NCBI GenBank assembly: GCA_031371785.1
Contig: JANMKC010000122.1
Coordinates: forward strand, 1-61,229
Direction of reading: 5' to 3'
Length of the DNA stretch: 61,229 nt
Source: Flavobacteriales bacterium
GTDB taxonomy: Bacteria > Bacteroidota > Bacteroidia > Flavobacteriales_F > PHOS-HE28
Positions 17,574 to 55,471 of this stretch are shown one piece after another. Within the stretch, counting starts at the first letter, position 1. Every line of letters begins with the position of its first letter. Under the pieces are notes generated by a model. It saw only the letters and a program-made list of their open reading frames with translations, was not told the DNA's origin and did no database searches. The position numbers and the translations under genes are program-made.

Positions 17574-17580
17574 CACCCCT

Positions 17581-19252: not shown

Positions 19253-19268
19253 GGAACTCGGTACGAAC

Positions 19269-19300: not shown

Positions 19301-19369
19301 GTGATGGCGGATCGTGTGAGGATCGATCCTCACGATATCCTCGGAGGTGTGCCACGGATCGACAGGTGC

Positions 19370-20077: not shown

Positions 20078-20080
20078 TGC

Positions 20081-29555: not shown

Positions 29556-32500
29556 CAGCGTTTCAGGTAGATGTATCCAGTGATCATGTCGTCGCCATTG
29601 CCCAGGTCGAGGACATAGTAGTAGGTGCTTTCGGGCAGTTCCTCGCCCCAGTTCATGTCGCCTTCACTACGGCCGTCCCAGTTGTTGTTGTAGGGGCTGC
29701 GGTCCAGCACCTGGCTGCCCCAGCGGTTGAAGACCTGGAAGGTGTTCTTTGGATAGTACTCCAAGCCCTCGATCACATACGTGTCGTTCACACCATCGCC
29801 GTTCGGGCTGAAGGCGTCGGGGATGGTGAGCTTCGCGCAATCGGTGAGCACCACCAGTATGCTGTCCGATGTCGTCCCGCAAACGCCGTTCACCACGGTC
29901 CACAGGAAGATGTTCTCGCCGAGCGCGAGCTGTGTCACATCCGTGGCGCTGTCCGCCGGGTCCACGATGTTGCCGGATCCACCGATCAACGTCCATGCGC
30001 CGATGGCGGTGTTGGAAAGCAGGGGTACCGCGTGCAATTGTGTTTCGGTGGTGTCCTGGCAATAGCTCTGGTCCGGTCCCGCGTCCGCTGGATGTTCCGA
30101 GGAGTCGAACACGGAGATGATCACCGCGTCCGACGTGCTTCCACACGCCCCGTTATCGATCGTCCACAAGAAGGTGTTCTCGCCAAAGCTGATGTCGGTG
30201 ATGGTGGTGAACGGATCGAGGGGATCGGTGATGGTGCCGCTGCCACTGCCGATAGTCCAAGCACCACTCGCTGGCGGTGTTGGCACGGTGGCGGTCATCG
30301 CCGCATCGCCGTTCGCCGGCACGCAGAATTGCTGGTCCGGTCCGGCGGCGGCCGATGGCGCATTGTTGTCGAAGAGGCTCACCACGATAGTGTCGGAGGT
30401 CAGGCCATTGGCACACGGTCCATTATTGATGGTCCAGGCCAGCACCAGGTTACCGACCCCGATCCCGGTGATGGCCGTTGTCGGTGACGACGGGTCCGCC
30501 AACTGGCCGGTGCCGGTCACGATGGTCCATTGACCGGTGGCCGGTGCGGTTGGGGCATTGCCCGCCATAGCGGTGCCGGTCGTTGGTGTGCATAGCTGCA
30601 CATCGGGTCCGGCGTTCGCGTTCGGCGATGCGGCATTGAAGATGGTGATCGTCAGATCGTCGCTCGTGGTTCCGCACGGGCCGTTGCTGATCGTCCAAGT
30701 GAACACGCTCACACCGACATCGAGATCGGTGATCCCGCTGTTCGGATCGTTGGGATCCGCGATGGTTCCCGTGCCGCTCACGAGCGTCCACGTTCCGCTG
30801 GCTGGATAGGTAGGCACGTTGCCCGCCATCGTTACCGTGTTCGGTTGCGTGGGTATGCAGATCGATTGGTCCGGTCCAGAGCCCGCAGGTGCCGCATTGC
30901 CATCGAACATCTGTATCAGTACCGTATCGGTGGTGGTTCCGCAGGCACCGTTGTCGATCGTCCACACGAAGATGTTGTCGCCCACGGCGATGTTGGTCGC
31001 AGTGGTCTGCGGGTCGCTCGGACCGGTGATCGTCGCACTGCCGCTGATGAGCGTCCAGCTACCGGTGCCGGGGAACGTGGCGGGGTTGCCAGCCATGGTG
31101 GCCGTTGTATTCGGTGTGCAGAACTGCTGATCGGGTCCTGCTGCGGCCGGTGCGGCGGTGCTGTCGAACACCGCTATGTTCACGGTGTCCTGCGAGGGTG
31201 GTCCTTGACCGCACTGTCCGTTGTACACCAGCCATTGGAAGGTGTTGTTGCCGATCGTGAGGCCGGTGATGCTGGCTGTGGGATCATGGATGTCGGAGAT
31301 CACACCGGTGCCGTTGATCAAGGTCCAAGTGCCTTCACCGGGGAAGGTGGGCACGAGCGCTTGCATCGTGGTGGTGGTATCGGGCGTGCAGTGTTCCTGG
31401 TCCGGTCCAGCGTCCGCAGCCGGTGCGGTAGGATCGTAGGTGTACACGAGCATCGTATCCGTGAGCAATCCATTGTTCGGGCAGGGGCCGAGGTCCAGCG
31501 TCCACACGAACGTGCTGATGCCGACGGTGAGATCGGTGATCAGGGTTGCGGTATCGAGCGGGTCGACGATGGTGCCGCTGCCGCTGGCCAAGGACCAGAT
31601 ACCTGTCGCGGGCAATTGCGGTGCTACGCCTTGCAGATGAATGGTGGTTTGCGGCAGGCAGGTTTCCAGGTCAGGACCGGCGTTCGGTGCGCTCGTGCTG
31701 TCGCTGAAGAGGATCACCGTCATGGTGTCCGAGGTGATCGGGTTGTTGCACGGGCCGTTGTTCACCGTCCATGCGAAGGTGTTGTAGCCGATGGTGAGGC
31801 CCACCACTTTGGAACCCGGATCATGCGTATCGGCGAAGAGGCCAGCACCGGAAACCAGCGACCATGTTCCCTCCGCGGGGAAGGTGGGCGTGTTGCCGGC
31901 GAGGTAGATGCTGTCCTGCGGTGTGCAGATCTCCACATCGGGTCCTGCGTTCGCGGGCGGGTTGAACTCGTCGTAGATGAACACGCTCACGCTGTCATGG
32001 CTGATGCCGCAGACGCCGTTCTCGAGCGTCCATACCAGGATGTTCTCACCCACGATGAGGCCGTCAACGTCCGTGGTCGGGCTCGCGGGATCGATGAAGT
32101 TGGCGCTGCCTTGTGCCACGCTCCACACACCGGTACCGGGAGCCGTCGCGTTGTTGGCGGCCATCGTTGTGCTCGTGTTCGGCGTACACTGCGATTGATC
32201 AGGACCCGCTGCGGCGGGCGGCGAGTTGAGGTCGAAGAGCAGGATGCTTGCATCGTCGCTCGTGAGTCCGTTCGCGCAGGGTCCATTGCTCACCGTCCAG
32301 GTAAAGACGTTCACGCCGATACCCAGATCCGTAACGGTGGTGTTCGGATCGCTCGGATCGGTGATCGTTCCTTGTCCGCTCGCCAGTGTCCATGTGCCCG
32401 TGGCTGGGAAGGTGTAAGAACTGCCCGCAAGGGTGGCGCTTGTTACCGGTGTGCAGATCTGCTGATCGGTACCGGCATCGGCCACAGGGTTGTTCACGTC

Positions 32501-35500
32501 GTAGACGAAGATGCTCACGAGGTCCGTGGTCAGCGGGTTGTTGCATGGCCCGTTGCTCACGGTCCATAGGAAAATGTTCTCGCCAATGGTGAGGTTGGTG
32601 ATCGCCGTGTTCGGAACGCTCGGATCGGCGATGTCGCCCGTACCCGTTACCAGCGTCCATGTTCCGGTGGCGGGGAAGGTGATGGCGCTACCGGCCATGG
32701 TGGTGTTCGTGTTCGGTGTGCAGAGTTCCTGATCCGGTCCTGCATCGGCCACGGGGTTCTGGTCATCGTAGAGGAAGATGCTCAGTTGGTCGGTGGAGAT
32801 GCCGCTCTCGCACGGCCCGTTGTTCACCGTCCAGCGGATGATCGTTTCGCCCACGGTCAACCCACTGATCGTCGTGTTCGGATCGTTCGCATCGGCGAAG
32901 GCACCGTTGCCCTGCAGGATCGTCCATGTTCCGATAGCCGGGAAGATCACATTGCTGCCCGTGAGCTGCGCGCTCGTGGTCGGGGTGCAGAGGCTCTGAT
33001 CCGGTCCCGCATCGGCCACCGGGTTGGTGGCATCGAAGAGGAATATGCTCATCGTGTCCGAGGTGAGCGGGTTGGCGCATGGGCCGTTGCTCACCGTCCA
33101 CACGAAGATGTTCTCGCCCACGGTAAGGCCGCTCACCGCCGAGTTCGGATCGCTCGCGTTCGCCACGTTGCCTGTGCCACTGAACAATGTCCAAGCGCCG
33201 GTGGCAGGGAAGGTGATGGGGCTGCCGCTGAGCACCGCATCGCTGGTCGGCGTGCAGAGCTGTTGGTCAGGGCCGGCGTTAGCAACAGGATTTTGGTCGT
33301 CGAAAATGAAGATGCTCACCTGGTCGGTGGTCGGTGCGCCGCAAGGTCCGTTGTCCACCGTCCACTGGAAGATGTTCTCGCCGATGGTGAGCCCGTCAAC
33401 GGCCGAGTTCGGATCGGAAGGATCGGCGATGTTGCCCGTGCCCCCGATCAGCGTCCACGATCCGCTCGCGGGGAAGGTTACTGCCGAGCCTTGCAGGTTG
33501 GTCGTGCTCGTCGGTGTGCAGAACTGTTGATCGGCACCGGCGTTCGCGCCCACGTTGTTGTTGTCGAAGAGGAGGATCGTGACGGTGTCCGAAGTGAGCC
33601 CGTTCGCGCAAGGTCCGTTGCTCACGGTCCATGCGAACACGTTCGCGCCGACGTCAAGACCGGTCACCGAGGAGTTCGGGTCGTTCGCGTCCGCGATCGC
33701 TCCGGCACCGCTCACCAATGTCCATGTGCCTTGTGCGGGGAAGGTGATGGCGCTGCCAGCGAACGATGTGCTCGTGGTCGGCGTGCAGAGGTTCTGGTCG
33801 GGCCCGGCGTTGGCCACCGGGTTGTTCACGTCGAAGACGAAGATGCTCACCACATCGGTGGTCAACGGGTTCGCGCAAGGCCCGTTCGCCATGCTCCATT
33901 GCAGGATGTTCTCGCCGATGGTCAATGCGCTTACTGTGGCGTTCGGGTCGTTGGGATCACTGAAGATGCCGGTGCCTTGCAGTACTGTCCATGTGCCTTG
34001 CGCAGGGAATGTCGCGTTGCTGCCGGCGAGTGTGGTGCTCGTGTTCGGCGTACACAGCTCCTGGTCCGGTCCCGCATCGGCCACCGGGTTCAGGTCGTCG
34101 AAGACGAAGATGCTCACCTGATCGGTCGTGATGCCGTTCGCGCACGGTCCGTTGCTCACGGTCCACACGAAGATGTTCTCACCCACGGTAAGGCCGCTCA
34201 CCGCCGTGTTCGGATCGTTCGCATCGGCAATGATGCCGGTGCCGCCCGCGAGTGTCCATGTTCCGCTCGCGGGGAAGGTGGGTGTGTTGCCCGCGAGGTT
34301 GGTCGTGCTCACCGGTGTGCAGATCTGCTGGTCCGGTCCTGCATCGGCCGCCGCGTTGTTCGCGTCGTAAACGAACACGCTCATCTGGTCGGTGGTGGTG
34401 CCGTTCGCGCACGGACCATTGTTCACGCTCCACTGGAAGATGTTCTCACCCACGGTGAGGCCGCTCACGGATGTGTTCGGATCGTTCGCATCGGCGAATG
34501 TGCCGGTGCCTTGCACGAGAGTCCATGTGCCTTGTGCGGGGAAGATCACGCTGCTGCCTGCGAGCGCGGTGCTCGCGGTAGGCGTGCAGAGTTCCTGGTC
34601 GGGTCCCGCGTTCGCATCGGCGTTGCCGTTATCGAAGAGGAAGATGCTCACCGCATCGGTGCTGCTTCCACACGGGCCGTTGCTGATGCTCCATTGCAGG
34701 ATGTTCTCGCCCACGGTCAATCCGCTCACCGTGGTGTTCGGATCATTCGCATCGGCGAAGGTGCCGCCACCTTGCAACACGGTCCATGTGCCCACGGCCA
34801 CGCCTACGGTGCTGTTCGCAGCGAGCGTGGCGGAAGTGGTCGGTGTACACAACTGCTGGTCGGGTCCCGCATCGGCGGAAGCGGCCGCGTTGTCATAGAT
34901 GTTGATCGTTACCTGGTCGGTAGTGATGCCACCGCAAGGGCCATTGTCCACGGTCCATAGGAACACGTTCGCACCGACACCCAGATCGATGACGGTGCTG
35001 TTCGCCGCCGTGGGATCGCTGATCGTACCGTTGCCGCTCACCAGCGTCCATGTGCCGGTGGAAGGGAAGCTGTAGTTGCTGCCGCTGAGGGTGGCGGTGT
35101 TCGTCGGCAGGCAGAGGTCCTGATCGCTACCGGCATTGGCCACGGCCTGTTGGGCGTCGTACACGAAAATGCTCACCAGGTCGCTCGAACTTCCGCAGGT
35201 GCCATTGTCCAGCGTCCATTGCAGTACCACTTCGCCCACGGCGAAACCATTGGCGGTAGCATTGGGATCGGCGGGATCGCTCAGTGTCACCGTGCCGCTC
35301 ACGACGCTCCAGAAACCGGTGCTCACCCCAGTGGGCGCGTTGCCTTGCAATTGCACGTTCGATCCGATGCCGCACACGCTTTGATCGGAACCGGCGTCGG
35401 CGTTGGGCGCGTTGTCATCGAACACGTTGATCGTTACCTGATCACTGGTGAAGCCTGTGCCGCAGGGGCCATTGTTCACGAACCAGGCGAACACATTGGC

Positions 35501-38500
35501 ACCTATGCTCAGATTGCTTACCGTGGAATTCGGCAGGGTCGGATCGGAGAAGGTGCCCGTGCCGCTCACGGTGCTCCACGACCCGGTGGCCGGGAAGATC
35601 AGCGTGCTCGCCTGCATCACCGTGGTGGTGGTTCCGCAGAGGTTCTGCGTGGGGCCCGCATCCGCATCCGGGGTGTTCGCATCATAAAGGAAGATGCTCA
35701 CCTGGTCGGTGGTGAACGCGTTCGCACAAGGCCCGTTGTCCACGCTCCACACGAAGGTGTTCTGGCCAACGCTCAATCCGTTCACCGTGGTGTTCGGAGC
35801 GTTGGCGTCCTGGAAAACACCGGTGCCCTGTGTCACCGTCCATACGCCGGTGGCGGGGAAGATGAGGCTGCTGCCGTTGAGCGTGGTGGAGGTAGTGGGT
35901 GTACACAGATCCTCGTTCGGGCCAGCGTTCGCCACCGGGTTGTTGAGATCATAGACACTGATCGTCACCTGATCGCTGGAGATCGGGTTGGCGCATGGTC
36001 CGTTGTTCAGTGTCCACTGGAAAATGTACACACCGGGCGAAATGCCGGAGACCGTGGTGTTGGGGTTGGTCGGGTTGGTGATGGTACCGGTGCCTTGTAC
36101 GATGGTCCAGAGACCGGTGGCAGGGAACGTCGGCGTGTTGCCGTTCAACAGCAGGAGCGCTACCGGCGTACACACGGATTGTTCGTTGCCGGCATTGGCC
36201 ACCGGGCTGTTCGGATCGTACACCGTGATGGTCACTTGATCGCTGGTGACACCCGGAGCGCAGGGGCCATTGTCCACCGTCCATTGGAAAACGTTCACGC
36301 CGATGGGGATCCCGAAGGCGAGCGTATTCGGATCGTTCGCATCGGAGAAATTGCCCGTGCCGCTTATCACGGTCCACACACCCTGTCCGGGGAAGATGGT
36401 AGCGCTGCCGTTCAAGGTCACCTGCGCCACGCCATTGTCGGAGCAGGCGCTCTGGTCGGCACCCGCGTCGGCCGCGCTCTGTCCCGCATCATATACATAG
36501 ATGGTCATCGGGTCGCTGCTCACGCCGCAAGCACCGTTGTTGATGTTCCATACAAGGATGTTCGCGCCCACGCCCAAGCCGCTCACGGAGGAGGTGGCGC
36601 TGGTAGCGTTGCCGAACGTGGCGGTGCCTTGCTGCACGGTCCAGGATCCGGTAGCGGGGAAGGTGGGTGCATTGCCCGCGAGTGTGGTGCTGGCCGCATC
36701 ACTGCAGAGGTTCTGGTCGGCTCCGGCGTTGGCCGCTTGTGCAGCGCCGTTGAAGACGTTGATCGTCACATTGTCCGTAGTGGTTCCCGGAACGCACGGA
36801 CCGTTGTTTACCATCCAGCTGAAGACGTTCGCTCCGAGACCGAGGCCGGTGATCTGCGAGTTGGGATCGCTGGCCGTTATGATCGTGCCGCTGCCGCTTA
36901 CGAGCGCCCATGTGCCGGTAGCTGGTGAGGTGAGTGGACTGCCGGCCATCACCGTGCTGGTGATCGGCGTGCAGAGGTTCTGGTCAGGCCCCGCATTGGC
37001 CGCGGGGTTCGCGGCGTCGAACACGAACACGCTCACTTGGTCGCTCGTGATCGGGTTCACACAGGGACCGTTGTCGATGGTCCATTGGAACACGCTCGTA
37101 CCCACGTCGAGCCCCGTTACGGTGGTGGTGAAGTTGTTCGGTGAGGTGATGATCCCGATGCCGCTCACCAAGGTCCATGTGCCGATGGCCGGATAGATCA
37201 CCGGAAGTCCTGATAGTGTGACCGTGTTAGGGAACGTGGGTACGCAGATGCTCTGGTCGGGACCGGCGAAGGCCACATCCTGGCGGTTGTCGTACACCTT
37301 GATCAGCACGTCATCAGTGGTCACCGCACCACAGGGGCCGTTGCTCACGGTCCAGCGGAAGATGTTGTCCCCGATGCCAAGGCCGGTGATCAGGGTAGTG
37401 GGACTGCCATGCGCCACGATGGTGCCGCTACCACTGACCAATGTCCAGTCGCCCGTTGCGGGGAAGATGAGGGAACTGCCCGCCATGTTGGTGCTGGTAT
37501 CCGGGCGGCAGAGCGATTGGTCGGGTCCGGCATTGGCCACCGGGTTGTTCGCATCGAAGAGGAAGATGCTCACCACATCATTGGTGATGCCGCTCGCGCA
37601 GGGTCCATTGTTCACTGTCCAGCGGAAGATGTTCTCGCCGACGATCAATCCGCTTACTGCGGTGTTGCGCAGGTTCGCATTGGCGAAGACGCCTGCACCT
37701 TGCACCACGGTCCACGTGCCGACGGCGGGCGCTATCACGTTGCTGCCTGCGAGCGTCGTGCTGGTTGTCGGTGTGCAGAGGTTCTGGTCAGGCCCGGCGT
37801 TGGCCACCGGGTTGGCGTTGCTGAATACCAGTATGGACACTTGGTCGCTGCTCGTTCCGCAGGATCCGTTGTTGATGTTCCACTGCACGATCACTGTGCC
37901 CACACCAAGACCGGTGAGGGTAGTGGTCGTTGCGTTCGGTGAAGTGATCGTGCCGGTACCGCTGATCAAGGTCCATGATCCGGTGGCGCTACCTATCGGT
38001 GCGTTACCGGTGACCGTGGCGACAGGGCTCGTGGAGCAGACGCTTTGATCCGCGCCCGCATTGGCGGGTTGTGCGTTCTGGTCGAAGATGTTGATCGTCA
38101 CCAGGTCGTTGGTAGCAGCACCGCACGGCCCGTTGATCACGGTCCATCGGAACACGTTCGCACCAACGCCAAGGTTGGAGATCGACGTGGTAGGCGAGTT
38201 CACTGCGGCGATGGTTCCGCTGCCGCCCACGAGGGTCCATGTGCCAGTGGCGGGGAAGATCACGTTGCTGCCCGCCATGGTCGCCGTGGTGAAGGGCGTA
38301 CACTGGTTCTGGTCAGGTCCGGCGTTGGCCACCGGGTTGTTCACGTCGAAGACGAACACGCTCACCTGGTCGCTCGTGGTGCCACAGGGTCCGTTGTTCA
38401 CGCTCCATTGGAACACGTTGTTGCCAACGCCGAGGTTGGTGATGGAGGTGAAGGGCGAAGCGGCCGCAGTGATGGTGCCGCTGCCACTGATCAAGGTCCA

Positions 38501-41500
38501 TGTGCCGATGGCCACGCCCACGGTAGGGCTGCCGCTCATCAATACGGTAGGGGTGGTGGAGCAGATGCTCTGGTCCGGCCCGGCACTGGCCACCGGAGCG
38601 TTGGCATTGTAGAGGTTGATCACCACATCATCGGTGGTGATGCCACCGCACGGTCCGTTGTTCACCGTCCAGCGGAAGGTGTTCGCACCCACGCCGAGAG
38701 CGGTGATGGTGGTGGTGCGCGAGAAAGGCGTGGTGATCGTTCCGCTGCCGCCGGTCAGTGTCCACGTTCCTGTAGCGGGGAAGATCACGTTGCTGCCCGC
38801 CATCGTGGCCGTGGTGTTCGGCGTGCAGAGGCTTTGGTCAGGTCCGGCGTTGGCTGGCGGGTTGTTCGCGTCGTAAACGAACACGCTCACCTGGTCGTTG
38901 GTGTTGCCGCATGCGCCGTTGTTCACCGTCCATTGGAAGATGTTGTTGCCAACGCCCATGCCGCTCACGCCGGTGCTGCTGGTGTTGGGTGAAGCGATGG
39001 TGCCCGATCCGCTCACCAGCGTCCATGCGCCGGTGGTGGGCGCCGTTACCGCACTGCCGGTGAGCGTTGCGCTCGGCGTGGTGGAGCACACGTTCTGGTC
39101 GGCACCCGCGTTGGCGATGGCCGCACCGTTGCTGTTCACCGTGATGGTCACATCATCGGTACTGATGGGATTCGCGCAAGGGCCGTTGTTGATCGTCCAG
39201 CGGAACACGTTCACGCCGGTACCGAGCGCGGTAACACCGCTGGTGGCGGAAGAAGGAGAAGTGATGGTGCCGCTGCCGCTGATCAATATCCACACGCCGG
39301 TGCTCGGCGGGGTCGGCGAGTTGCCCGCCAGCGTGGTGTTGATGTTCGGAGTACACTTCGTCTGGTCCGGTCCGGCATTGGCGGTGGCTGCGTTCTGGTC
39401 ATATATGGTGATCACCACCAGATCGGTGGAGGGCGCACCGCACGGCCCATTGCTTATCGTCCAGCGCAAAGTCACCGTGCCGATGGCGAGGTTCGTTACC
39501 GTGGAGGTAGGAGAGGTGGGTGTGGTGATGGTACCGGTCCCGCTCACGACCGTCCATGCGCCGGTGCTGGGCGCGGTAGGCGTGCTGCCCGCCATGGTGG
39601 CCGTGGGCGAACTGCTGCACACGCTCTGGTCCGGCCCCGCATTGGCGATCGGCGCTGCGGGATCGAAGCGCGTGATCGTTGCTTGATCGCTAGTAAGGCC
39701 GTTAGCGCAAGGGCCGTTGTTCACCGTCCACTGGAACACGTTCGCGCCCACACCCAATCCGGTGACACCTGAAGCAGGTGAGTTCGGGGCGGTGATCGAT
39801 CCTGCGCCGCTGACCAAGGTCCAATGTCCAGTGGCCGGTGAGATCGGTGTGTTTCCCGCGAGCGAAGCAGAAGTAGCGCATACCTGCTGGTCCGGTCCGG
39901 CGTTGGCAGGTGGGCTGTTCGGGTTGAACACGGTGACATTGACCGTGTCCTGCGTGAATGGTGGGACGCAGGGTCCGTTATAGATCGTCCAGAGGAACGA
40001 ATTCACGCCGGCGCTGAGACCTGAAACCGCGCTGTTCCGGAAATTCACGTTGACGAATACGCCGGTACCCGCGATCACTGACCAAGTGCCGTTGGCCGGT
40101 TGAGCGTTCATGGTGGTGCTGCTGGTGGGCAGGCACAATAACTGATCAGGCCCCGCATTGGCCGCGGGCTGAGCATAGTCGTACAGCATGATCGTCACCT
40201 GATCGGTGGTGGGTGCTCCGCAAGGGCCGTTCGAAATGGTCCATTGGAACTTGTTCTGGCCGATGGACATGCCATTGACCATTGAGTTCGGGTTGTTAGG
40301 GTCGGCGAAGGTGCCGGTACCATTGATGAGGGTCCATGTTCCTACTGCGGGTGGCACTGCGGCATTGGCTGCGAGTTGCCCCGACGTGCTCGGCGTGCAT
40401 AGCTGCTGGTTAGGCCCAGCGTCGGCCGCCGCCTGCGAGGCGCTGTAGTTCACCACGGTCACTTGGTCGCTCGTTATACCGCAGGGTGCGTAATCCAGTG
40501 TCCATTGGAAAACATTGTTGCCTTGCGCCATGCCGGTTACCACCGCGTTGGGATTGCTGACGCTGCTGAAGGTGCCGCTGCCGCTGATCACGGTCCATTG
40601 CGCGGGTGTTTGTGAATACGGCAGCACCGCCTGCATGGTCACCGTTCCGCATGCTTGCAGATCCGGACCCGCGTTGGCGGGCGCGAACGGCGGCGTCACG
40701 ATCACCGTATAGCCATACTGGTTGGTGCCGGTGAGCGGGCAGGCGTTGTCGTTCACCGTTATGGTGAAGGTGTTGTTGCCGATGTCCGCTGCTGTGGGGG
40801 TCCAAGTGAAGGTGCCGGTCTGGAAAGGCGAGCCGCTGGTGGTGAAATTGCCGCCCGGAATGCCGCCGCTGTAAACGATGGTCGTGTTCTGCCCCGCGTT
40901 CGCGTCATTGGTATTGATGGTGAAGGAGACGGGCGTTCCCGTGCACACCGTGGTGGTATAGTTGTTCGTGCCGTTCACACCGGTGGCGGTGGGCGACGAG
41001 TTGCCGGTACACACGCGCACCACGAACTGCACGTCGCGCGTCACCGCACCGATGAGCACGCCGTTGCGGTACTCGCGCACACGGTAAGTGACCACCGACA
41101 CCTGCTGGATGTCCGGTACGCAGGTGAGCGTTCCGGTGATGGGGTTCAGCACCACCGCGTTCGCTCCGCCGGTATTGTGGATCGGCTGGGCAACGGTGTA
41201 GCCCGCAGTGAAAGGAATGTTCACGTTGCCCGCAGTGCGCGGCTGGATGATCGCGTAAGCGAGGGAATCACCATCGGGGTCAAAGGCACCGGGGTTGTAG
41301 CTTATCGGTTGGCCGAGACAGTAGTAAGGTGTAGGGGCGTTGAGGAAGACCGGCGAATTGTCGCAGGGCGTCAGTGTCCGGTTCAAGTTGGTGTTCAGGT
41401 ACAGGCTCTGGTTGCCGGGGTTCTGCAACGAGGTGATCGCATTGTTGCGGCAGCAGAGCGCCCAGCTGATCACGAAATCGTTGCCCGTGCCACAGTTCGC

Positions 41501-41914
41501 ATACGGCGTAAGGCTGATGATCTTCGAGAAGGTGTATTCCTCCACGCCGTAGGTACCAGTCGCGTTGCTGCAGCGGTCGAGCTCCGACGGGCAGATCGGC
41601 GTGATGATCTGCACGCTCTCGAGCGTGAGGCATTGATCGAAATTGGCACCGCAGTTCGCCGATGCCACATTGAAGGAAAGGCCGTTGGTGCAATTGGTGG
41701 GTGCCGCTACGCCGTTGCAATCGCGGTAGAATTTCAACGTCACCTTGTACTGGTTGCTGCCCAGGCAGGTGTAGGTGAGCTCGCCCCCTACGGCGTGCGT
41801 GGCCCGTGCCTCATCGGGGCGGAGCAGCAGCGCCGAAGCGGCGATCAGCAGGTTGCGGAGAAGGGAACGGGTCGCTTGGACCGGGGTGCGTGGTGCGCGT
41901 AGGGATGATGCCAT
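29555..41914 (-). CDS. giant (4119 aa) cell-surface repeat protein with a T9SS type B (gliding-motility-associated, CHU_C-type) C-terminal sorting domain
   Basis: It has a signal peptide, a ~410-aa N-terminal module, and about 41 tandem repeats with the consensus ANAGPDQxLCTPxTSTxLAGSxxxFPAxGTWTLVSGTGxFxDPNDPNTxVSGLTVGENIFxWTVxNGPCxxxxTxDQVSIFVYD. The last 91 aa read LTIPDAFSPNGDGVNDTYVIEGLEYYP...FNRWG...YYYVLDLG...GYIYLKR, a type B CTD. Confidence 0.92.
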   Translation of the reverse strand: MASSLRAPRTPVQATRSLLRNLLIAASALLLRPDEARATHAVGGELTYTCLGSNQYKVTLKFYRDCNGVAAPTNCTNGLSFNVASANCGANFDQCLTLESVQIITPICPSELDRCSNATGTYGVEEYTFSKIISLTPYANCGTGNDFVISWALCCRNNAITSLQNPGNQSLYLNTNLNRTLTPCDNSPVFLNAPTPYYCLGQPISYNPGAFDPDGDSLAYAIIQPRTAGNVNIPFTAGYTVAQPIHNTGGANAVVLNPITGTLTCVPDIQQVSVVTYRVREYRNGVLIGAVTRDVQFVVRVCTGNSSPTATGVNGTNNYTTTVCTGTPVSFTINTNDANAGQNTTIVYSGGIPGGNFTTSGSPFQTGTFTWTPTAADIGNNTFTITVNDNACPLTGTNQYGYTVIVTPPFAPANAGPDLQACGTVTMQAVLPYSQTPAQWTVISGSGTFSSVSNPNAVVTGMAQGNNVFQWTLDYAPCGITSDQVTVVNYSASQAAADAGPNQQLCTPSTSGQLAANAAVPPAVGTWTLINGTGTFADPNNPNSMVNGMSIGQNKFQWTISNGPCGAPTTDQVTIMLYDYAQPAANAGPDQLLCLPTSSTTMNAQPANGTWSVIAGTGVFVNVNFRNSAVSGLSAGVNSFLWTIYNGPCVPPFTQDTVNVTVFNPNSPPANAGPDQQVCATSASLAGNTPISPATGHWTLVSGAGSITAPNSPASGVTGLGVGANVFQWTVNNGPCANGLTSDQATITRFDPAAPIANAGPDQSVCSSSPTATMAGSTPTAPSTGAWTVVSGTGTITTPTSPTSTVTNLAIGTVTLRWTISNGPCGAPSTDLVVITIYDQNAATANAGPDQTKCTPNINTTLAGNSPTPPSTGVWILISGSGTITSPSSATSGVTALGTGVNVFRWTINNGPCANPISTDDVTITVNSNGAAIANAGADQNVCSTTPSATLTGSAVTAPTTGAWTLVSGSGTIASPNTSSTGVSGMGVGNNIFQWTVNNGACGNTNDQVSVFVYDANNPPANAGPDQSLCTPNTTATMAGSNVIFPATGTWTLTGGSGTITTPFSRTTTITALGVGANTFRWTVNNGPCGGITTDDVVINLYNANAPVASAGPDQSICSTTPTVLMSGSPTVGVAIGTWTLISGSGTITAAASPFTSITNLGVGNNVFQWSVNNGPCGTTSDQVSVFVFDVNNPVANAGPDQNQCTPFTTATMAGSNVIFPATGTWTLVGGSGTIAAVNSPTTSISNLGVGANVFRWTVINGPCGAATNDLVTINIFDQNAQPANAGADQSVCSTSPVATVTGNAPIGSATGSWTLISGTGTITSPNATTTTLTGLGVGTVIVQWNINNGSCGTSSDQVSILVFSNANPVANAGPDQNLCTPTTSTTLAGSNVIAPAVGTWTVVQGAGVFANANLRNTAVSGLIVGENIFRWTVNNGPCASGITNDVVSIFLFDANNPVANAGPDQSLCRPDTSTNMAGSSLIFPATGDWTLVSGSGTIVAHGSPTTLITGLGIGDNIFRWTVSNGPCGAVTTDDVLIKVYDNRQDVAFAGPDQSICVPTFPNTVTLSGLPVIYPAIGTWTLVSGIGIITSPNNFTTTVTGLDVGTSVFQWTIDNGPCVNPITSDQVSVFVFDAANPAANAGPDQNLCTPITSTVMAGSPLTSPATGTWALVSGSGTIITASDPNSQITGLGLGANVFSWMVNNGPCVPGTTTDNVTINVFNGAAQAANAGADQNLCSDAASTTLAGNAPTFPATGSWTVQQGTATFGNATSATSSVSGLGVGANILVWNINNGACGVSSDPMTIYVYDAGQSAADAGADQSACSDNGVAQVTLNGSATIFPGQGVWTVISGTGNFSDANDPNTLAFGIPIGVNVFQWTVDNGPCAPGVTSDQVTITVYDPNSPVANAGNEQSVCTPVALLLLNGNTPTFPATGLWTIVQGTGTITNPTNPNTTVSGISPGVYIFQWTLNNGPCANPISSDQVTISVYDLNNPVANAGPNEDLCTPTTSTTLNGSSLIFPATGVWTVTQGTGVFQDANAPNTTVNGLSVGQNTFVWSVDNGPCANAFTTDQVSIFLYDANTPDADAGPTQNLCGTTTTVMQASTLIFPATGSWSTVSGTGTFSDPTLPNSTVSNLSIGANVFAWFVNNGPCGTGFTSDQVTINVFDDNAPNADAGSDQSVCGIGSNVQLQGNAPTGVSTGFWSVVSGTVTLSDPADPNATANGFAVGEVVLQWTLDNGTCGSSSDLVSIFVYDAQQAVANAGSDQDLCLPTNTATLSGSNYSFPSTGTWTLVSGNGTISDPTAANSTVIDLGVGANVFLWTVDNGPCGGITTDQVTINIYDNAAASADAGPDQQLCTPTTSATLAANSTVGVAVGTWTVLQGGGTFADANDPNTTVSGLTVGENILQWSISNGPCGSSTDAVSIFLFDNGNADANAGPDQELCTPTASTALAGSSVIFPAQGTWTLVQGTGTFADANDPNTSVSGLTVGENIFQWSVNNGPCANGTTTDQMSVFVYDANNAAADAGPDQQICTPVSTTNLAGNTPTFPASGTWTLAGGTGIIADANDPNTAVSGLTVGENIFVWTVSNGPCANGITTDQVSIFVFDDLNPVADAGPDQELCTPNTSTTLAGSNATFPAQGTWTVLQGTGIFSDPNDPNATVSALTIGENILQWSMANGPCANPLTTDVVSIFVFDVNNPVANAGPDQNLCTPTTSTSFAGSAITFPAQGTWTLVSGAGAIADANDPNSSVTGLDVGANVFAWTVSNGPCANGLTSDTVTILLFDNNNVGANAGADQQFCTPTSTTNLQGSAVTFPASGSWTLIGGTGNIADPSDPNSAVDGLTIGENIFQWTVDNGPCGAPTTDQVSIFIFDDQNPVANAGPDQQLCTPTSDAVLSGSPITFPATGAWTLFSGTGNVANASDPNSAVSGLTVGENIFVWTVSNGPCANPLTSDTMSIFLFDATNPVADAGPDQSLCTPTTSAQLTGSNVIFPAIGTWTILQGNGAFADANDPNTTISGLTVGETIIRWTVNNGPCESGISTDQLSIFLYDDQNPVADAGPDQELCTPNTNTTMAGSAITFPATGTWTLVTGTGDIADPSVPNTAITNLTIGENIFLWTVSNGPCNNPLTTDLVSIFVYDVNNPVADAGTDQQICTPVTSATLAGSSYTFPATGTWTLASGQGTITDPSDPNTTVTDLGIGVNVFTWTVSNGPCANGLTSDDASILLFDLNSPPAAAGPDQSQCTPNTSTTMAANNATAPGTGVWSVAQGSANFIDPASPTTDVDGLIVGENILVWTLENGVCGISHDSVSVFIYDEFNPPANAGPDVEICTPQDSIYLAGNTPTFPAEGTWSLVSGAGLFADTHDPGSKVVGLTIGYNTFAWTVNNGPCNNPITSDTMTVILFSDSTSAPNAGPDLETCLPQTTIHLQGVAPQLPATGIWSLASGSGTIVDPLDTATLITDLTVGISTFVWTLDLGPCPNNGLLTDTMLVYTYDPTAPAADAGPDQEHCTPDTTTTMQALVPTFPGEGTWTLINGTGVISDIHDPTASITGLTIGNNTFQWLVYNGQCGQGPPSQDTVNIAVFDSTAAPAAAGPDQQFCTPNTTATMAGNPATFPGTGSWTLISGSATITGPSDPQTTATNIAVGDNIFVWTIDNGACGTTTDTVLIQMFDGNAAPAGSGPDQSICIPTQPNTVTMAGNVPTYPASGTWTLVSGTGTIADPNDPNSGITDLDVGVSVFTWTISNGPCGTTSDDLTITIFNAASPNANAGPDVQLCTPTTGTAMAGNAPTAPATGQWTIVTGTGQLADPSSPTTAITGIGVGNLVLAWTINNGPCANGLTSDTIVVSLFDNNAPSAAAGPDQQFCVPANGDAAMTATVPTPPASGAWTIGSGSGTITDPLDPFTTITDISFGENTFLWTIDNGACGSTSDAVIISVFDSSEHPADAGPDQSYCQDTTETQLHAVPLLSNTAIGAWTLIGGSGNIVDPADSATDVTQLALGENIFLWTVVNGVCGTTSDSILVVLTDCAKLTIPDAFSPNGDGVNDTYVIEGLEYYPKNTFQVFNRWGSQVLDRSPYNNNWDGRSEGDMNWGEELPESTYYYVLDLGNGDDMITGYIYLKR
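29831..40681 (-). repeat. tandem coding repeat array (about 41 units of 85-90 codons, roughly 260 bp each) within the giant adhesin gene
   Basis: I counted 41 occurrences of the [AS]-[ND/A]-AG-[PAST]-[DN]-x-x-x-C unit start in the translated ORF. The units have diverged (not identical) at both protein and DNA level. Confidence 0.85.
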
Positions 41915-42249: not shown

Positions 42250-42930
42250 CTACTTGATCCCGAACCGGCAGTAGTGTATCTTCTTTCCTTCCGCCAGCCA
42301 CATGCGCTCATAGAATGTGCGGATGTTCAACACGCGTTGTTCCTCTTCGCTCACACGATGGACCAGCTCGCCATACACATCGGCACTCTTTTCCTGCAAA
42401 GGCAGGTGGTGTAATTCCACTTGTTCCAGCGTGTATTCATAGAGCAAGGGACTGTCCGTCTTCAAGTGAACGAGGCCGCCGGGCTTCAACACTTCTTTGT
42501 AGCGCGCAAGGAAGAGCGGGGAGGTGAGCCGCTTGCGCGCTTTGCCTATTTGTGGATCGGAGAAGGTGAGCCAGATCCCGCTTATCTCTCCCGGGGCGAA
42601 GCAGTTCAGGAGATGGTCCACATGCGTGCGCAGGAAACCGACGTTGGTGAGTCCCAGCTCCCGCACGGTGCGTGCCCCACGCCAGATCCGTGCGCCCTTG
42701 ATGTCCACCCCGATATAGTTGCGCTCCGGCCGCAATTGCGCGAGCCCCGTGGTGTATTCGCCTTTGCCGCAGCCGAGTTCCAGCACCAATGGCGCATCAC
42801 GCTTGAAGAATTCGCTGTTCCATCTTCCCTTCAGCGGGAATTCACCGCGCGCGACCTCCTCGAAGGTGGGTTGCACCACATGCTCGAACGTGGCGTTCTC
42901 AGTGAAGCGTTCCTGTTTGCCTTTGCCCAT
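42250..42930 (-). CDS. trmB: tRNA (guanine-N7)-methyltransferase
   Basis: The ATG at 42930 gives MGKGKQERFTENATFEHVVQP. The SAM motif is LVLELGCGKGEYT, followed by NYIGVDIKG and FSDP. The listed 94-codon N-terminal extension is translated from the repeat element. Confidence 0.88.
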   Translation of the reverse strand: MGKGKQERFTENATFEHVVQPTFEEVARGEFPLKGRWNSEFFKRDAPLVLELGCGKGEYTTGLAQLRPERNYIGVDIKGARIWRGARTVRELGLTNVGFLRTHVDHLLNCFAPGEISGIWLTFSDPQIGKARKRLTSPLFLARYKEVLKPGGLVHLKTDSPLLYEYTLEQVELHHLPLQEKSADVYGELVHRVSEEEQRVLNIRTFYERMWLAEGKKIHYCRFGIK

Positions 42931-42952
42931 GGCCCGTTGTCGCTGATCAGGT

Positions 42953-43050
42953 CTGGTTGCTGGTTGTTGGTTGCTGGTTGTTGGTTGTTCGGCTGGGTGG
43001 TGGCAACCGGTCGGCGTTCGCCAACAACAAACAACCAGCAACCAACAACC
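42953..43050. repeat. heptamer-arm hairpin element, copy 2
   Basis: The left arm (42953-42989) is CTGGTTGCTGGTTGTTGGTTGCTGGTTGTTGGTTGTT. The core is CGGCTGGGTGGTGGCAACCGGTCGGCGTTCG. The right arm (43021-43050) is CCAACAACAAACAACCAGCAACCAACAACC. It lies between the divergent trmB and glycosyltransferase starts. Confidence 0.85.
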
Positions 43051-43087
43051 ATCGGCGGGCAAAGATGCGATCCCGACATTCGCCGTG

Positions 43088-44170
43088 ATGTTCGCCGGTG
43101 CCCGCATTCTCATCGCCCCGCTCGATTGGGGGCTCGGGCACAGCACGCGCGACATCCCCATCATCCGGCGCTTGTTGGAACTGGACGCCCGGCCGGTGAT
43201 CGGTGCCGACAAGGGACCGCTCGCGCTATTGCGTGATGAGTTCCCGGCGCTCCCGTGGGTGCGTATCCGCGGCGTGGAAGTACGCTATGCGAAAGGTGGA
43301 TCCCAGCGGTTGGCGATGGCCACGCAATTCCCCGCGATGCTGCGCTCATTGCGGCACGAACATGCGTTGCTGCTCGACATCTTCCGCGAGCAGAAGATCG
43401 ATGCGGTGATCAGCGATCAACGCTTTGGGCTTCGCACGGCGCACGTGCCGTCAGTGCTCATCACGCATCAGGTATTTCCGTTCACGCCTTTCGCGCAGTC
43501 AGCGCTGCGCCGCTTGAACCGCTACCAAATCCAGCGGTTCGACAAGTGCTGGATCATGGATGAGCCGGAAGCTCCCGGACTGGCGGGTACACTTTCGCAC
43601 GGCGCACAGATGCCCGCGAACGCGCGCTATATCGGTGCGCTCAGTCGTATGCGCGCAGGTATGAGCGTATCGCGCCGCTATCGCATCGCTGCGGTGATCA
43701 GCGGACCTGAACCGCAGCGGACCCTGCTTGATGATGCGCTTACGCGCCAGCTACGCGCCATCGACGGCGAACACTTGCTTGTGCGCGGACTGCCAACGGA
43801 ACCTGCGACGGATCGCATCGGCAACATCGAACGACGTTCCCACATGAACGCTCGCGACCTCAACGATGCGTTGCTCAACGCCGAGCACATCATCACCCGC
43901 AGCGGCTATACCACCTTGATGGACCTCGCCGTCCTCGGCCGTAGCGCATTGCTGATCCCAACACCGGGACAATCGGAACAGGAATACCTGGCGGAACTGC
44001 ACCAGCGTACGGGGCGGTTCACCTTCCAGCGGCAAAGCGAGCTCAACGTTCGCGCTTATGTGGAGCATACGCGGTCGACCGATCCCGGATCCGCGTCATT
44101 CGATAGTGCGTTGTTGGAACCGGCCTTGCAGGAACTCGCCACGATGATCCCACGCAACTCCGGAGCCTGA
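43088..44170 (+). CDS. glycosyltransferase (GT28/MurG-like, GT-B fold)
   Basis: The ATG at 43088 gives MFAGARILIAPLDWGLGHSTRDIPIIRRL, the typical N-terminus of this Bacteroidota GT family. The C-terminal part reads ITRSGYTTLMDLAVLGRSALLIPTPGQSEQEYLA. Confidence 0.7.
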   Translation: MFAGARILIAPLDWGLGHSTRDIPIIRRLLELDARPVIGADKGPLALLRDEFPALPWVRIRGVEVRYAKGGSQRLAMATQFPAMLRSLRHEHALLLDIFREQKIDAVISDQRFGLRTAHVPSVLITHQVFPFTPFAQSALRRLNRYQIQRFDKCWIMDEPEAPGLAGTLSHGAQMPANARYIGALSRMRAGMSVSRRYRIAAVISGPEPQRTLLDDALTRQLRAIDGEHLLVRGLPTEPATDRIGNIERRSHMNARDLNDALLNAEHIITRSGYTTLMDLAVLGRSALLIPTPGQSEQEYLAELHQRTGRFTFQRQSELNVRAYVEHTRSTDPGSASFDSALLEPALQELATMIPRNSGA

Positions 44171-51983: not shown

Positions 51984-52072
51984 TGGTTGTTGGTTGTTGG
52001 TTGTTGGTTGTTCGGCTGGGTGGCATGACCAGTTCGGCATTCACCAACAACCAGCAACCAACAACCAACAAC
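51984..52072. repeat. heptamer-arm hairpin element, copy 3 (fills the gap between convergent genes)
   Basis: The left arm is (TGGTTGT)x4-like (51984-52012). The core is CGGCTGGGTGGCATGACCAGTTCGGCATTC. The right arm is ACCAACAACCAGCAACCAACAACCAACAAC (52043-52072). It starts 1 nt after the stop at 51983 and ends 4 nt before the stop at 52076. Confidence 0.85.
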
Positions 52073-52075
52073 TTA

Positions 52076-53653: not shown

Positions 53654-53749
53654 CGTCATCGCGAGCGGCGCATTTGGCCGCGAAGCGATCTTTGATCCTA
53701 CCCTGGCCAATCAAAGATCGCTTCGCTCGAAGACTCGTTCGCGATGACG
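53654..53749. repeat. nested ~96-nt palindromic element (probable bidirectional terminator; second repeat family)
   Basis: The outer inverted repeat is CGTCATCGCGA (53654-53664) / TCGCGATGACG (53739-53749). The inner perfect 17-bp inverted repeat is GCGAAGCGATCTTTGAT (53680-53696) / ATCAAAGATCGCTTCGC (53710-53726). It lies between convergent genes. Confidence 0.75.
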
Positions 53750-53874: not shown

Positions 53875-55173
53875 TCAATGCTTTGGACGGCGGCGAACAA
53901 AGACGGGCTTGTTCTTTGCCTTGTTCACTAAGAGGAACCGCTTGTGGAAAAAATCAGCATCAGTTATCCGGGTTTCAAGAGTTACACTCTGGCCGTTTAT
54001 TTTCAATGCACCTTCTTGAATTGCACGCTTCGCCTCCGCTTTGGATTTATAGATCGTGCTTCCGGTGGCTCCAGTCACCAGTTCGGTCACCAACATGGGT
54101 AGGGGAACGATCTCATTCAGGTCCGCACTTGCCGTGCTTCCGGAAGCGACGTTCCATGTCTCTTCGGACCAATCAGAGAAAGACCCTGTCTGTAAGCCCA
54201 AGTATACCCTGTCAGACTCCCGGACAACCAGATCCGCAGCAGCAGATCCATGCACTGTTGCGGTGATCACATAGGCCAGCTTTTTCTGAAGGTTCCGCAA
54301 ATGTTCGGCTTTGCCGTGCTCAGTGATCAAAGACTCGCATTCTTCTTGCGGCCACGTGGTGAAAATCTTCACGAAGCGGGCGGCATCCGCGTCGCTTTGT
54401 CGCAACCAGAATTGGAAGAAATCGAACGCCGTGGTTCTGCTCTTATCCAACCAAATGTTGCCGCCCTCGCTCTTGCCGAACTTGCTGCCATCGGCTTTGG
54501 TGAGCAGTGGTGTGGTGAGCGCGAAGGCCTCACCGCCATCCATGCGGCGGATCAGTTCGGTGCCCGTAGTGATGTTGCCCCATTGGTCGCTGCCGCCCAT
54601 TTGCAGCTTGCAGCCCTTGTTCTTGTAGAGCCAGTAGTAGTCATAGCCCTGCACGAGCTGGTAAGTGAACTCGGTGAAGGAGATGCCGGTCTCCATGCGG
54701 TTCTTCACGCTGTCCTTCGCCAACATGTAGCCCACGGGAATGTGCTTGCCCACTTCGCGGATGAAGCGCAGGAAACCCATGTCCTTGAACCAGTCGTAGT
54801 TGTTCACGAGTTCGGCCGGGCGCGTCGTCGAATCGAAGTCGATGAAGCGCGCGAGCTGTTTGCCCACGCATTCCTGGTTGTGGCGCAGCAGCTCCTCATC
54901 GAGCAGATTGCGTTCGCTGCTCTTCCCGCTGGGATCGCCCACCATGCCGGTGGCGCCGCCCACCAGCGCGATGGGCCGGTGACCGCTTTCTTGGAAGTGC
55001 TTGAGCATCATGATCTGCACCATATTGCCCACGTGCAGCGAATCAGCGGTGGGGTCGAAACCGATGTAACCGCTGGCCGGTCCCTTCAGCAGGAATTCCT
55101 CCGTGCCGGGCATGCTGTCGTGCAATAACCCGCGCCAGCGCAGCTCCTCCACATGGTTGCGTAGAATATCCAT
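53875..55173 (-). CDS. tyrS: tyrosine--tRNA ligase
   Basis: The ATG at 55173 gives MDILRNHVEELRWRGLLHD. The HIGH-type motif is SLHVGN and the KMSKS-type motif is KFGKS. The C-terminus has an S4-like domain. The listed 109-codon N-terminal extension is translated heptamer repeat (WLLVVGCWLL...). Confidence 0.95.
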   Translation of the reverse strand: MDILRNHVEELRWRGLLHDSMPGTEEFLLKGPASGYIGFDPTADSLHVGNMVQIMMLKHFQESGHRPIALVGGATGMVGDPSGKSSERNLLDEELLRHNQECVGKQLARFIDFDSTTRPAELVNNYDWFKDMGFLRFIREVGKHIPVGYMLAKDSVKNRMETGISFTEFTYQLVQGYDYYWLYKNKGCKLQMGGSDQWGNITTGTELIRRMDGGEAFALTTPLLTKADGSKFGKSEGGNIWLDKSRTTAFDFFQFWLRQSDADAARFVKIFTTWPQEECESLITEHGKAEHLRNLQKKLAYVITATVHGSAAADLVVRESDRVYLGLQTGSFSDWSEETWNVASGSTASADLNEIVPLPMLVTELVTGATGSTIYKSKAEAKRAIQEGALKINGQSVTLETRITDADFFHKRFLLVNKAKNKPVFVRRRPKH

Positions 55174-55222
55174 CGGCGGCGAAGATATTCCGGTGGGTGT
55201 TGAGCACGCGCAATGTTTGCCC

Positions 55223-55439: not shown

Positions 55440-55471
55440 AAGGATCCTTTCGTTCCACCACCTTCGCGCCG

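Follow-up and report, generated by a model that had tools for sequence, protein, structure and literature searches.

The 61,229-nt contig JANMKC010000122.1 of a Flavobacteriales bacterium, which we call the window when its whole length is meant, holds at least four copies of a hairpin-forming repeat of about 95 bases whose stems are made of a 7-base microsatellite. Copies 2, 3 and 4 of this repeat share a common ancestor, and a discrete unit of about 95 nt, comprising both arms and the core between them, spread by copying to several sites, at one of which it is inverted. The explanation that we favor, and to which we give about an even chance of being correct, is that the copies form one lineage-specific family of non-autonomous, foldback- or REPIN-like dispersed elements with slippage-prone microsatellite arms.

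Heptamer-armed units and their common descent

All four elements follow one layout, (GGTTGYT)4-5, then a 33-nt core, then (ARCAACC)4, with a longer arm in copy 4. They occupy the following positions.

8812-8908, + strand: copy 1, core-forward and degenerate; GGTTGYT-type arm at about 8812-8846, diverged core at 8847-8880, four ARCAACC-type units at 8881-8908
42953-43050, + strand: copy 2, core-forward; five GGTTGYT units at 42955-42989, core at 42990-43022, four ARCAACC units at 43023-43050
51984-52073, + strand: copy 3, core-forward; four GGTTGTT units at 51985-52012, core at 52013-52045, four ARCAACC units at 52046-52073
55222-55441: copy 4, whole element, inverted (core on the - strand)
55222-55249, - strand: short arm of copy 4, four units on the - strand (AGGAACC, AACAACC, ATCAACC, AACAACG)
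55250-55282, - strand: core of copy 4, in reverse complement relative to copies 2 and 3, with whose cores it shares 24-25 of 33 positions
55283-55441, - strand: expanded arm of copy 4, about 22 GGTTGYT units (AACAACC/AGCAACC on the + strand)

Tandem Repeats Finder detected period-7 arrays flanking the core at all four sites, and in the expanded arm of copy 4 it delimited an array of 159 nt with 22.7 units and 92% matches; this unit count is uncertain, given that the contig is metagenomic and that an array of about the length of a typical short read or k-mer might be mis-assembled from short reads. When the units were parsed, the ARCAACC side of the core had exactly four heptamers in 4/4 copies, and the GGTTGYT side had four or five in copies 1-3 and about 22 in copy 4. 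An inverted-repeat search returned arms of 27-38 nt that are 87-97% complementary, that is, terminal inverted repeats (TIRs) are present. With at most one mismatch allowed, the window contains 40 occurrences of the double heptamer GGTTGYTGGTTGYT, where shuffled sequences predict 0.11, and all but one of these occurrences fall inside the four elements. A covariance model built from the four copies and run on the 61-kb window with all filters off returned the same four elements at 81-106 bits (copy 1, matched at 8812-8910, with 81 bits, and copy 2 with 106 bits), and no further copy in the contig, its other matches being two weak and different hairpins. The four elements are real, far above chance, and represent the full set for the contig.

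A sequence-only reading of this DNA had reported four copies at these sites with a heptamer-core-heptamer architecture, and the sequence, Tandem Repeats Finder and the covariance model bear it out. It was also right that the elements are neither a CRISPR array, the units being 7-nt and head-to-tail with one unique core per element and no repeat-spacer series, nor a classic repetitive extragenic palindromic (REP) sequence, the arms being tandem heptamers that are not self-palindromic.

The common descent of copies 2, 3 and 4 is evident in their 33-nt cores, which, once that of copy 4 is reverse-complemented, align without gaps with 24-25 of 33 positions identical (shuffle p<=0.0005); the inverted orientation of the copy 4 core and the nine positions at which copies 2 and 3 differ both agree with what the sequence-only reading had described. 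The conserved core that it ascribed to the whole set holds for these three copies and not for copy 1, whose core showed no significant similarity to the others (p 0.07-0.6); that copy 1 is more diverged, as it had also stated, is supported by this result and by a weak fold. The arms retain a further trace of ancestry. Read outward from the core, the five innermost GGTTGYT units have one and the same order of variants (T,T,C,T,C) in copies 2 and 4, and in copy 2 these C/T variants are mirrored on the opposite arm. Given the homology of the cores and the variant order shared by copies 2 and 4, the whole unit was copied and not grown separately at each site.

After reverse-complementing copy 4 the four copies align end to end, and the divergence between them is unevenly distributed, with differences at 5-6 of the 56 arm positions, at 1-2 of the 17 positions that make up the core edges (CGGCYGGGTGG ... 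TTCRCC) and at 7-8 of the 16 central core positions, which form the variable loop. The stem and the core edges are therefore constrained or homogenised, and the loop is free to vary. The length of the arms also changes after insertion, as copy 4 shows; since the arms are a heptanucleotide microsatellite, slippage alters their length, and the earlier proposal that slippage can change stem length is in keeping with the approximately 22 units of copy 4 versus four.

Each element consists of two inverted arms and a spacer that fold into one hairpin, as predicted for copies 2 and 3 (z ~-7). For copy 2 the RNA fold reached -66 kcal/mol on the + strand (z -7.3) and -58 on the - strand, and -65 kcal/mol for the sense RNA in the direction of the trmB transcript; for copy 3 the values were -59 kcal/mol on the + strand (z -7.3) and -51 on the - strand. 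The long hairpin claimed for all copies is upheld in these two and is weak in the degenerate copy 1, whose fold was barely better than those of shuffled sequences (z ~-2). The consensus structure of the four copies contains 35 base pairs; double changes were seen at only two pairs of the core, four sequences giving no statistical power for covariation. No Rfam family matched the whole window at gathering thresholds.

The descent of the cores bears directly on a reading in which each hairpin arose separately in situ, slippage expanding one arm and intrastrand template switching mirroring it, which we consider very unlikely for the set. Slippage-type expansion is indeed seen in copy 4, the C/T variants mirrored between the arms of copy 2 are what such templating would leave, heptamer foldbacks with unrelated cores exist in many phyla (see below), and a second heptamer type makes a hairpin at 28444-28516 of the window. 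Nevertheless, separate growth leaves unexplained the 24-25 of 33 identical core positions, which largely refute it for copies 2-4, as well as the five-unit variant order common to copies 2 and 4 and the constant four-unit arm; moreover, the copy 2 core did not evolve from a trmB leader like that of a relative. The derivation of this core from an ancestral trmB leader hairpin was in fact examined and rejected, as the alignment with the leader of the related contig L121 gave p=0.88 and the L121 fold was not significant. In situ growth is a possible origin for copy 1 and for the 28444 hairpin.

The latter hairpin is unrelated to the four elements. It has GGCAGTR-type and YACTGCC-type heptamer arms (-54 kcal/mol, z -5.3) and lies within codons ~10-34 of an OmpA/TPR/PD40 gene (ATG at 28544), in a signal-peptide region that is 12 amino acids longer than that of the orthologue in the related contig L129; it looks like an in-frame, tolerated insertion into coding sequence.

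Related contigs, empty sites and the mode of spread

The window has 60% GC, and its Pfam content fits Bacteroidota (PorP/SprF and many Por_Secre_tail/CHU_C cargo proteins). The nearest relatives of its tyrosyl-tRNA synthetase (TyrRS, 53875-55173) are 65-68% identical, several of them recorded as "MAG: Flavobacteriales bacterium" (MAG, metagenome-assembled genome), and one partial protein reaches 86%. For comparison we used seven syntenic contigs of Flavobacteriales-like metagenome sequence (about 95 kb in total, 60-65% GC, TyrRS 65-86% identical). The gene order around copies 2, 3 and 4 is kept in these contigs and comprises the divergent epimerase and TyrRS genes, a LuxE-like gene, an open reading frame (ORF) of 159-174 amino acids, Na/Pi-PhoU, a histidine kinase, an endonuclease, and the divergent GT28 and TrmB genes.

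This synteny disposes of nearly all concern that the repeats are an assembly artefact, that is, collapsed or chimeric low-complexity sequence, an explanation that we find scarcely credible. In its favor, the contig is metagenomic and the 159-nt array of copy 4 is as long as a typical short read. Against it, the flanks of the four sites are unique, the relatives have exactly the same gene order across copies 2, 3 and 4 (epimerase-TyrRS, 159-174 aa ORF/NaPi-PhoU and GT28-TrmB), the C/T variants in the arms are non-periodic and each site has a core distinct from the others.

The seven relatives contain no GGTTGYT double units and no exact triple heptamers of any kind, and the covariance model gave nothing significant on them (best match 17.6 bits, E 0.08). 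Their intergenic regions orthologous to the sites of the elements are shorter or of unrelated sequence. The epimerase-TyrRS spacers measure 73-99 nt, the convergent gap corresponding to the site of copy 3 measures 60 nt in L123 but 0 nt in both L121 and L128, and the GT28-TrmB spacers measure 116-153 nt, all of them without an element; copy 4 is also missing from the relative with the 86%-identical TyrRS. A check for empty sites in relatives, which the sequence-only reading had recommended, thus found the orthologous sites empty in seven contigs. As these relatives lack the arrays and their orthologous sites are empty, the family is, judging from this comparison, specific to the lineage of the window.

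At the site of copy 2 the change can be followed more closely. The GT28 and trmB -7 boxes are 7 nt apart in the window and ~70 nt apart in L121 (14295-14447) and L128 (14412-14527), which would mean that the window lost a spacer of ~60 nt and gained a 98-nt element 3' of the trmB box; the GT28-trmB intergenic length (42931-43087) remained almost equal, with 154 nt in the window versus 153 nt in relatives.

In the explanation that we favor, an ancestral non-coding unit of ~90-98 nt would have been copied to new intergenic sites in the manner of REPINs, foldback elements or MITEs (miniature inverted-repeat transposable elements). The copying route may have been one that recognises single-stranded hairpins, like that of the REP-associated tyrosine transposases (RAYTs) or of IS200/IS605-like elements, or one mediated by recombination or repair; the absence of target-site duplications and the all-hairpin shape lead away from a cut-and-paste TIR transposase. 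After insertion, replication slippage would alter the length of the arms, as may have happened in copy 4. Effects on the host would be by-products of position, the elements acting as incidental RNA stem-loops. Copies 1 and 2, as the extreme 5' end of an mRNA, would present a stem of 28-35 bp that could act as a stabiliser, as an RNase III substrate or as a barrier to translation, copy 3 would provide a 3' stem-loop for both convergent transcripts, and copy 4 would set two divergent promoters ~220 bp apart. Among the roles listed by the sequence-only reading, a MITE-like mobile element fits best, with homologous cores, one of them inverted, shared variants and empty sites on its side; the lack of target-site duplications, however, sets the elements apart from classical TIR/TSD MITEs.

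Several observations weigh against this explanation. No target-site duplication was found at the four copies, whose flanks share a direct repeat of at most 0-3 nt, and the four copies have no common flanking or target motif. The approximately 40 ORFs of the window that were scanned include no transposase, RAYT or Y1_Tnp domain and no insertion sequence. The four known copies are all on one contig, and the empty sites are those of distant relatives (TyrRS <=86%), which document no recent insertion or excision. A search of JGI metagenome contigs with the arm and core pattern TTGGTTGTTCGGCYGGGTGG gave a single match, a chance one in AT-rich DNA; the core motif was absent from the other fetched loci, and copy 2 had no match when compared by BLAST with plasmids. 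The near-saturated loop and the strongly conserved stem could equally mean that the host selects for the structure. Finally, all statements on transcription, here and below, rest on motifs and refer to predicted start sites. Related searches were likewise negative, since the viral contigs scanned contained no foldback pattern and a six-frame protein query, directed at read-through gene calls, returned no core-sharing match and only the same heptamer in other organisms. In the public data searched, the family thus amounts to four copies with nothing in relatives, an outcome that the sequence-only reading had named as telling against its claim and that we do not regard as decisive, since the data cover 61 kb of the source genome.

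The broader implication is that an inverted heptamer pair and the core between its arrays can be inherited and copied together as one unit, with constrained stems, a free loop and an arm that may balloon by slippage. Such an element family joins the biology of microsatellites to that of selfish DNA of the REPIN/MITE type. Its practical value is for now limited by an uncultured host and by the 61 kb available of its genome.

Gene and promoter context and the functional alternatives

The intergenic placement that had been noted for every copy is correct. Copies 1, 2 and 4 lie between divergent genes, namely between 7936-8811(-) and 8966-9325(+), between a TrmB-like gene at 42250-42930(-) and a GT28-like gene at 43088-44170(+), and between TyrRS at 53875-55173(-) and an epimerase at 55472-56473(+), respectively. 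Copy 3 fills the gap at 51984-52075 between the stop codons of the Na/Pi-PhoU gene (+) and a 173-aa gene (-), its palindrome running into both convergent stop codons (TGAT...ATCA).

The Bacteroidota -7 box TAnnTT[TC]G has 14 sites on the two strands of the window, ten of which have the ATG of a long ORF no more than 150 nt downstream, seven of these within 6-39 nt. When one mismatch is allowed, most operon-first genes have a box (TAyyTTCG) 4-21 nt before the start codon, and from this spacing most mRNAs are expected to be leaderless or short-leadered; sigma-70-type promoters are depleted in the window (1 found vs 6.1 expected). Examples of the TAyyTTCG box are those at 9432, 50188, 50268, 52602, 55187 and 58890, usually followed by a CGCC-rich stretch. 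The boxes next to the elements are listed below.

8918-8925, - strand: -7 box TATTTTCG, promoter of gene 7936-8811; copy 1 starts 9 nt downstream
43060-43067, - strand: box-like CATCTTTG, then CCCGCCGAT; homologue of TATTTTCG-CCGCCCGCT, the trmB promoter in the relatives L121 and L128
43075-43082, + strand: -7 box GACATTCG, belonging to the GT28-like gene and 5 nt from its ATG at 43088; homologous GACATTTG in L121 and L128
55180-55187, - strand: -7 box TATCTTCG of TyrRS, 6 nt before its ATG at 55173, kept in relatives and outside copy 4
55459-55466, + strand: -7-like box CACCTTCG of the epimerase gene, 5 nt before its ATG at 55472, outside copy 4 and also present in L121

The end of copy 1 is 4 nt from the ATG at 8811, where a signal peptide begins. 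Copy 2 starts directly after the 9 nt behind CATCTTTG, no -7 box lies between it and the trmB ATG (42930), and on its other side it abuts the upstream region of the GT28-like gene promoter; in relatives the trmB leader has 25-54 nt, and its sequence bears no relation to the core of copy 2. Since a -7 box precedes each of them by 9 nt, copies 1 and 2 probably form the 5' leaders of transcripts, read in the core-reverse direction and with the CA-rich arm beside the start codon. A coding role for copy 2, through an ATG at 43053 in frame with trmB, was rejected, as the orthologues start at MGK, which corresponds to 42930. Because mRNAs in this organism are predicted to start a few nt from the ATG, the insertion of an element between the -7 box and the start codon would give a leaderless mRNA a structured leader of 100 nt, and such insertions would be a simple route by which these elements could rewire expression.

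These positions are the main attraction of a reading in which the elements are cis-regulatory RNA hairpins selected by the host, the stem controlling the processing, stability or translation of the mRNA and the arm length serving as a dial tunable by slippage; we regard it as unlikely. Copies 1 and 2 start 9 nt after the -7 box and end 4-22 nt before the ATG, a similar layout precedes prfC in a Saprospiraceae locus and another foldback ends ~14 nt before a phoU start codon (both described below), the stems and core edges are conserved with a variable loop, and the + strand folds ~9 kcal/mol better by means of G-U pairs, a signature at the RNA level, with an experimental precedent in hmw1A of Haemophilus influenzae (PMC12721329). 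However, the G-U-favored strand is not the strand predicted to be transcribed at copies 1 and 2. The contexts also differ from copy to copy (5' leader, convergent 3' gap, between promoters), the neighbors are unrelated housekeeping genes (trmB, tyrS and a phosphate transporter), copy 1 is decaying, and the elements are missing from the orthologous sites of 7/7 relatives, which implies that there is no conserved regulatory need for them.

A canonical terminator, another role that had been suggested, is not supported, as no T-run follows the element on either strand in 4/4 copies and none of the copies was listed in a terminator scan of the window, which overall showed no enrichment (12 found vs 14.9 expected). 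The scan did list a site near copy 4 (55192-55221), with a stem in the flank and a T-rich tail that is the first arm unit. Elsewhere in the window, between the convergent LuxE-like and TyrRS genes, there is a composite palindrome (53654-53748) without heptamers or a T-run, in which a perfect 17-bp stem (GCGAAGCGATCTTTGAT ... ATCAAAGATCGCTTCGC) is nested in an outer inverted repeat (GTCATCGCGAGCG ... CGTTCGCGATGAC), and this may be the usual 3'-end structure of the organism.

A function exerted by the DNA itself, as a binding or insulator site, fits only copy 4, which the TyrRS and epimerase -7 boxes flank and place upstream of both divergent promoters. The insulator between divergent promoters that the sequence-only reading had considered is consistent with copy 4 and not with copies 1 and 2, which lie in predicted 5' leaders. 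More generally, the elements could be structural or protein-binding sites, recognised by a nucleoid or regulatory protein or extruded as cruciforms, that insulate promoters or couple them through supercoiling, a proposal to which we assign a very low probability. Three heptamers span 21 bp (two helical turns), copy 4 has the upstream region of a divergent promoter on either side, copies 1 and 2 are next to back-to-back -7 boxes, the sequence of the arms is itself conserved beyond complementarity, and heptamer simple sequence repeats (SSRs) are reported to be over-represented in the intergenic DNA of several bacteria (PMC4692102). Nevertheless, no candidate binding protein is at hand, copy 3 is at gene 3' ends and far from promoters, and the G-T pairs in the stems disfavor cruciform DNA relative to RNA; G-quadruplexes are also unlikely, as the arm units hold GG only, with no G3-4 tracts.

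The window has other features of its own. A SprB-like operon on the - strand (29555-41914, 28548-29555 and 26298-28544) comprises an adhesin-like ORF of 4119 aa, in which a 267-bp unit (89 aa) is repeated in tandem about eight times at 32340-34792, followed by PorP/SprF and by the OmpA/TPR/PD40/CarboxypepD_reg protein; the adhesin-like/PorP-SprF/OmpA trio adjoins TyrRS in the relative L129. The region 13606-21247 is a possible defence or restriction island, with a protein combining Schlafen AlbA_2, HATPase_c_4 and winged helix-turn-helix domains, a DUF2442 protein, an HNH endonuclease, a CMAS-type methyltransferase, an unknown ORF and a C-5 cytosine DNA methylase, and it is missing from the fetched syntenic stretches of the relatives. 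Between two cargo genes of the type IX secretion system, a 27-nt inverted repeat (22463-22489/22589-22615, 89% complementary, with 99 nt between the arms) has a small palindrome of its own in each arm (CTCGGG...CCCGAG).

Heptamer foldbacks in other organisms and known systems

A scan of one genome per species for (GGTTGYT)x3 gave at least 120 stretches, and the matches listed come from Cyanobacteria, Bacteroidota, Planctomycetota, Acidobacteriota, Proteobacteria, Actinobacteria and others. By covariance model, 32 of the 120 matches listed are full-length foldbacks, and inspection of loci such as L007, L031, L056, L095, L098 and L115 revealed heptamer-armed hairpins with unrelated cores. In the JGI contig L126 (53-171), (GGTTGCT)5-core-(AGCAACC)10 folds with -95 kcal/mol and ends ~14 nt before the phoU start codon, and in a Saprospiraceae MAG (L010, 5990-6100) the order TACTTTTG-ccgcccatt-foldback-prfC reproduces the layout of copies 1 and 2. 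The sequence-only reading overstated its case in calling stems built from tandem heptamers unusual, given these 32 foldbacks and the inverted pairs of Xanthomonas (PMC4692102).

Several of these loci hold more than one copy, among them L115 (1994-2090 and 7754-7857) and L056 (1015-1122, 4656-4757 and 5425-5510), again with unrelated cores, and several copies are just upstream of start codons. In some cyanobacterial foldbacks the two arms are of different heptamers and pair at only 5-6 of 7 positions. Across phyla, arrays beside TAnnTTYG boxes were not significantly frequent (11 found vs 5.6 expected). The GGTTGYT-type heptamer is also found in frame in protein linkers of E2 acyltransferases and DnaX; in other Bacteroidota, in-frame (AGCAACC)n/(AACAACC)n of E2 and DnaX encode linkers of the NNQQPTT type (P0126, P0129 and P0130), and in the window the SucB/E2 linker between the lipoyl and the E3-binding domains (12600-12640) holds CAACCAACCAACC and two AACAACC units along with a small GC hairpin, CCCCGGCCTTCGCCGGGG.

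Among the matches listed, the same heptamer thus recurs with unrelated cores in Planctomycetota, Acidobacteriota, Gammaproteobacteria, Desulfuromonadota, Cyanobacteria and Bacteroidota, often near start codons, and GGTTGYT/ARCAACC foldbacks might accordingly be instances of a widespread and essentially uncharacterised class with a shared, dedicated mechanism, an idea that we judge quite improbable. Such a mechanism could involve a conserved protein that reads a heptad-periodic duplex or single-stranded nucleic acid, or self-propagating slippage combined with fold-back templating. Were it true, the Flavobacteriales family, as a discrete copied unit with constrained core edges, would be a tractable entry point.

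Turning to known systems, the foldback (FB) elements of Drosophila have long inverted arms made of short tandem repeats, of variable and unequal length, and the element folds back on itself; they are eukaryotic and of kilobase scale, are sometimes coding, and make target-site duplications.

REPINs are REP doublets that form hairpins and that RAYT transposases mobilise as one replicating unit (Bertels & Rainey 2011, PMC3116915). Like them, the elements described here are extragenic, non-coding and of ~100 nt, with two inverted arms and a spacer in one long imperfect hairpin, and in both the whole doublet is the replicative unit and is better conserved than decaying singlets, with which copy 1 may be compared. 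In contrast, the arms are here tandem heptamers that are not self-palindromic, whereas a REP arm is a single short, imperfect palindrome with a conserved 5' tetranucleotide; furthermore, REPINs are accompanied by a RAYT gene and number tens to hundreds of copies, compared with four copies in 61 kb and no RAYT among the ~40 ORFs.

Two other systems resemble the elements in their position. In H. influenzae the (ATCTTTC)n tract of hmw1A is part of a transcribed 5' untranslated region (5'-UTR), forms one arm of a long hairpin and is cut by RNase III, the repeat number tuning expression (Rapun-Araiz et al. 2025, PMC12721329). In copies 1 and 2, and possibly in copy 4, a heptanucleotide SSR would likewise be transcribed within a 5'-UTR as one arm of a long hairpin, and hmw1A offers a working model for them; unlike our elements, hmw1A is a single locus encoding a phase-variable adhesin, the other arm of its hairpin is a G-rich non-repeat, and it is not dispersed. 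Beggiatoaceae, Cyanobacteria and some Bacteroidetes carry direct arrays of the heptamer TAACTGA immediately upstream of start codons (MacGregor 2015, PMC4679880). The TAACTGA repeats and the cyanobacterial short tandemly repeated repetitive (STRR) sequences share with the elements the intergenic heptamer arrays, often a few nt upstream of start codons, the patchy spread across phyla and the carriers in Bacteroidetes; unlike the elements, they are almost always direct (169 direct vs 1 indirect in BOGUAY) and have neither an inverted partner nor a conserved core (PMC4679880).

The closest precedent comes from Xanthomonas. Each genome of X. campestris and X. axonopodis carries ~185 arrays of the heptamer GGGAATC, among which 70-75 inverted pairs are convergent on opposite strands and capable of forming stem-loops; the arrays have a modal length of four units, lie near stop codons, are mostly transcribed and differ in length between species (Rehm et al. 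2015, PMC4692102). The same authors reported heptamer SSRs to be over-represented in bacterial intergenic DNA, yet with "no detailed literature" by 2015 (PMC4692102). In both cases convergent tandem-heptamer arrays lie close together in intergenic DNA, the preference for four units recurs in the ARCAACC side of the elements, and the adjacency to stop codons recurs in copy 3. Unlike in Xanthomonas, the heptamer is a different one and is not G-quadruplex-prone, a homologous 33-nt core makes the pair a discrete copied unit, 3/4 copies are at 5' or promoter regions and not after ORFs, and the host is a member of Bacteroidota and not of Gammaproteobacteria. In summary, this poorly understood category has itself already been reported, and the novelty here lies in the heptamer used, in a core that is conserved, in a unit copied as a discrete whole and in the Flavobacteriales host.

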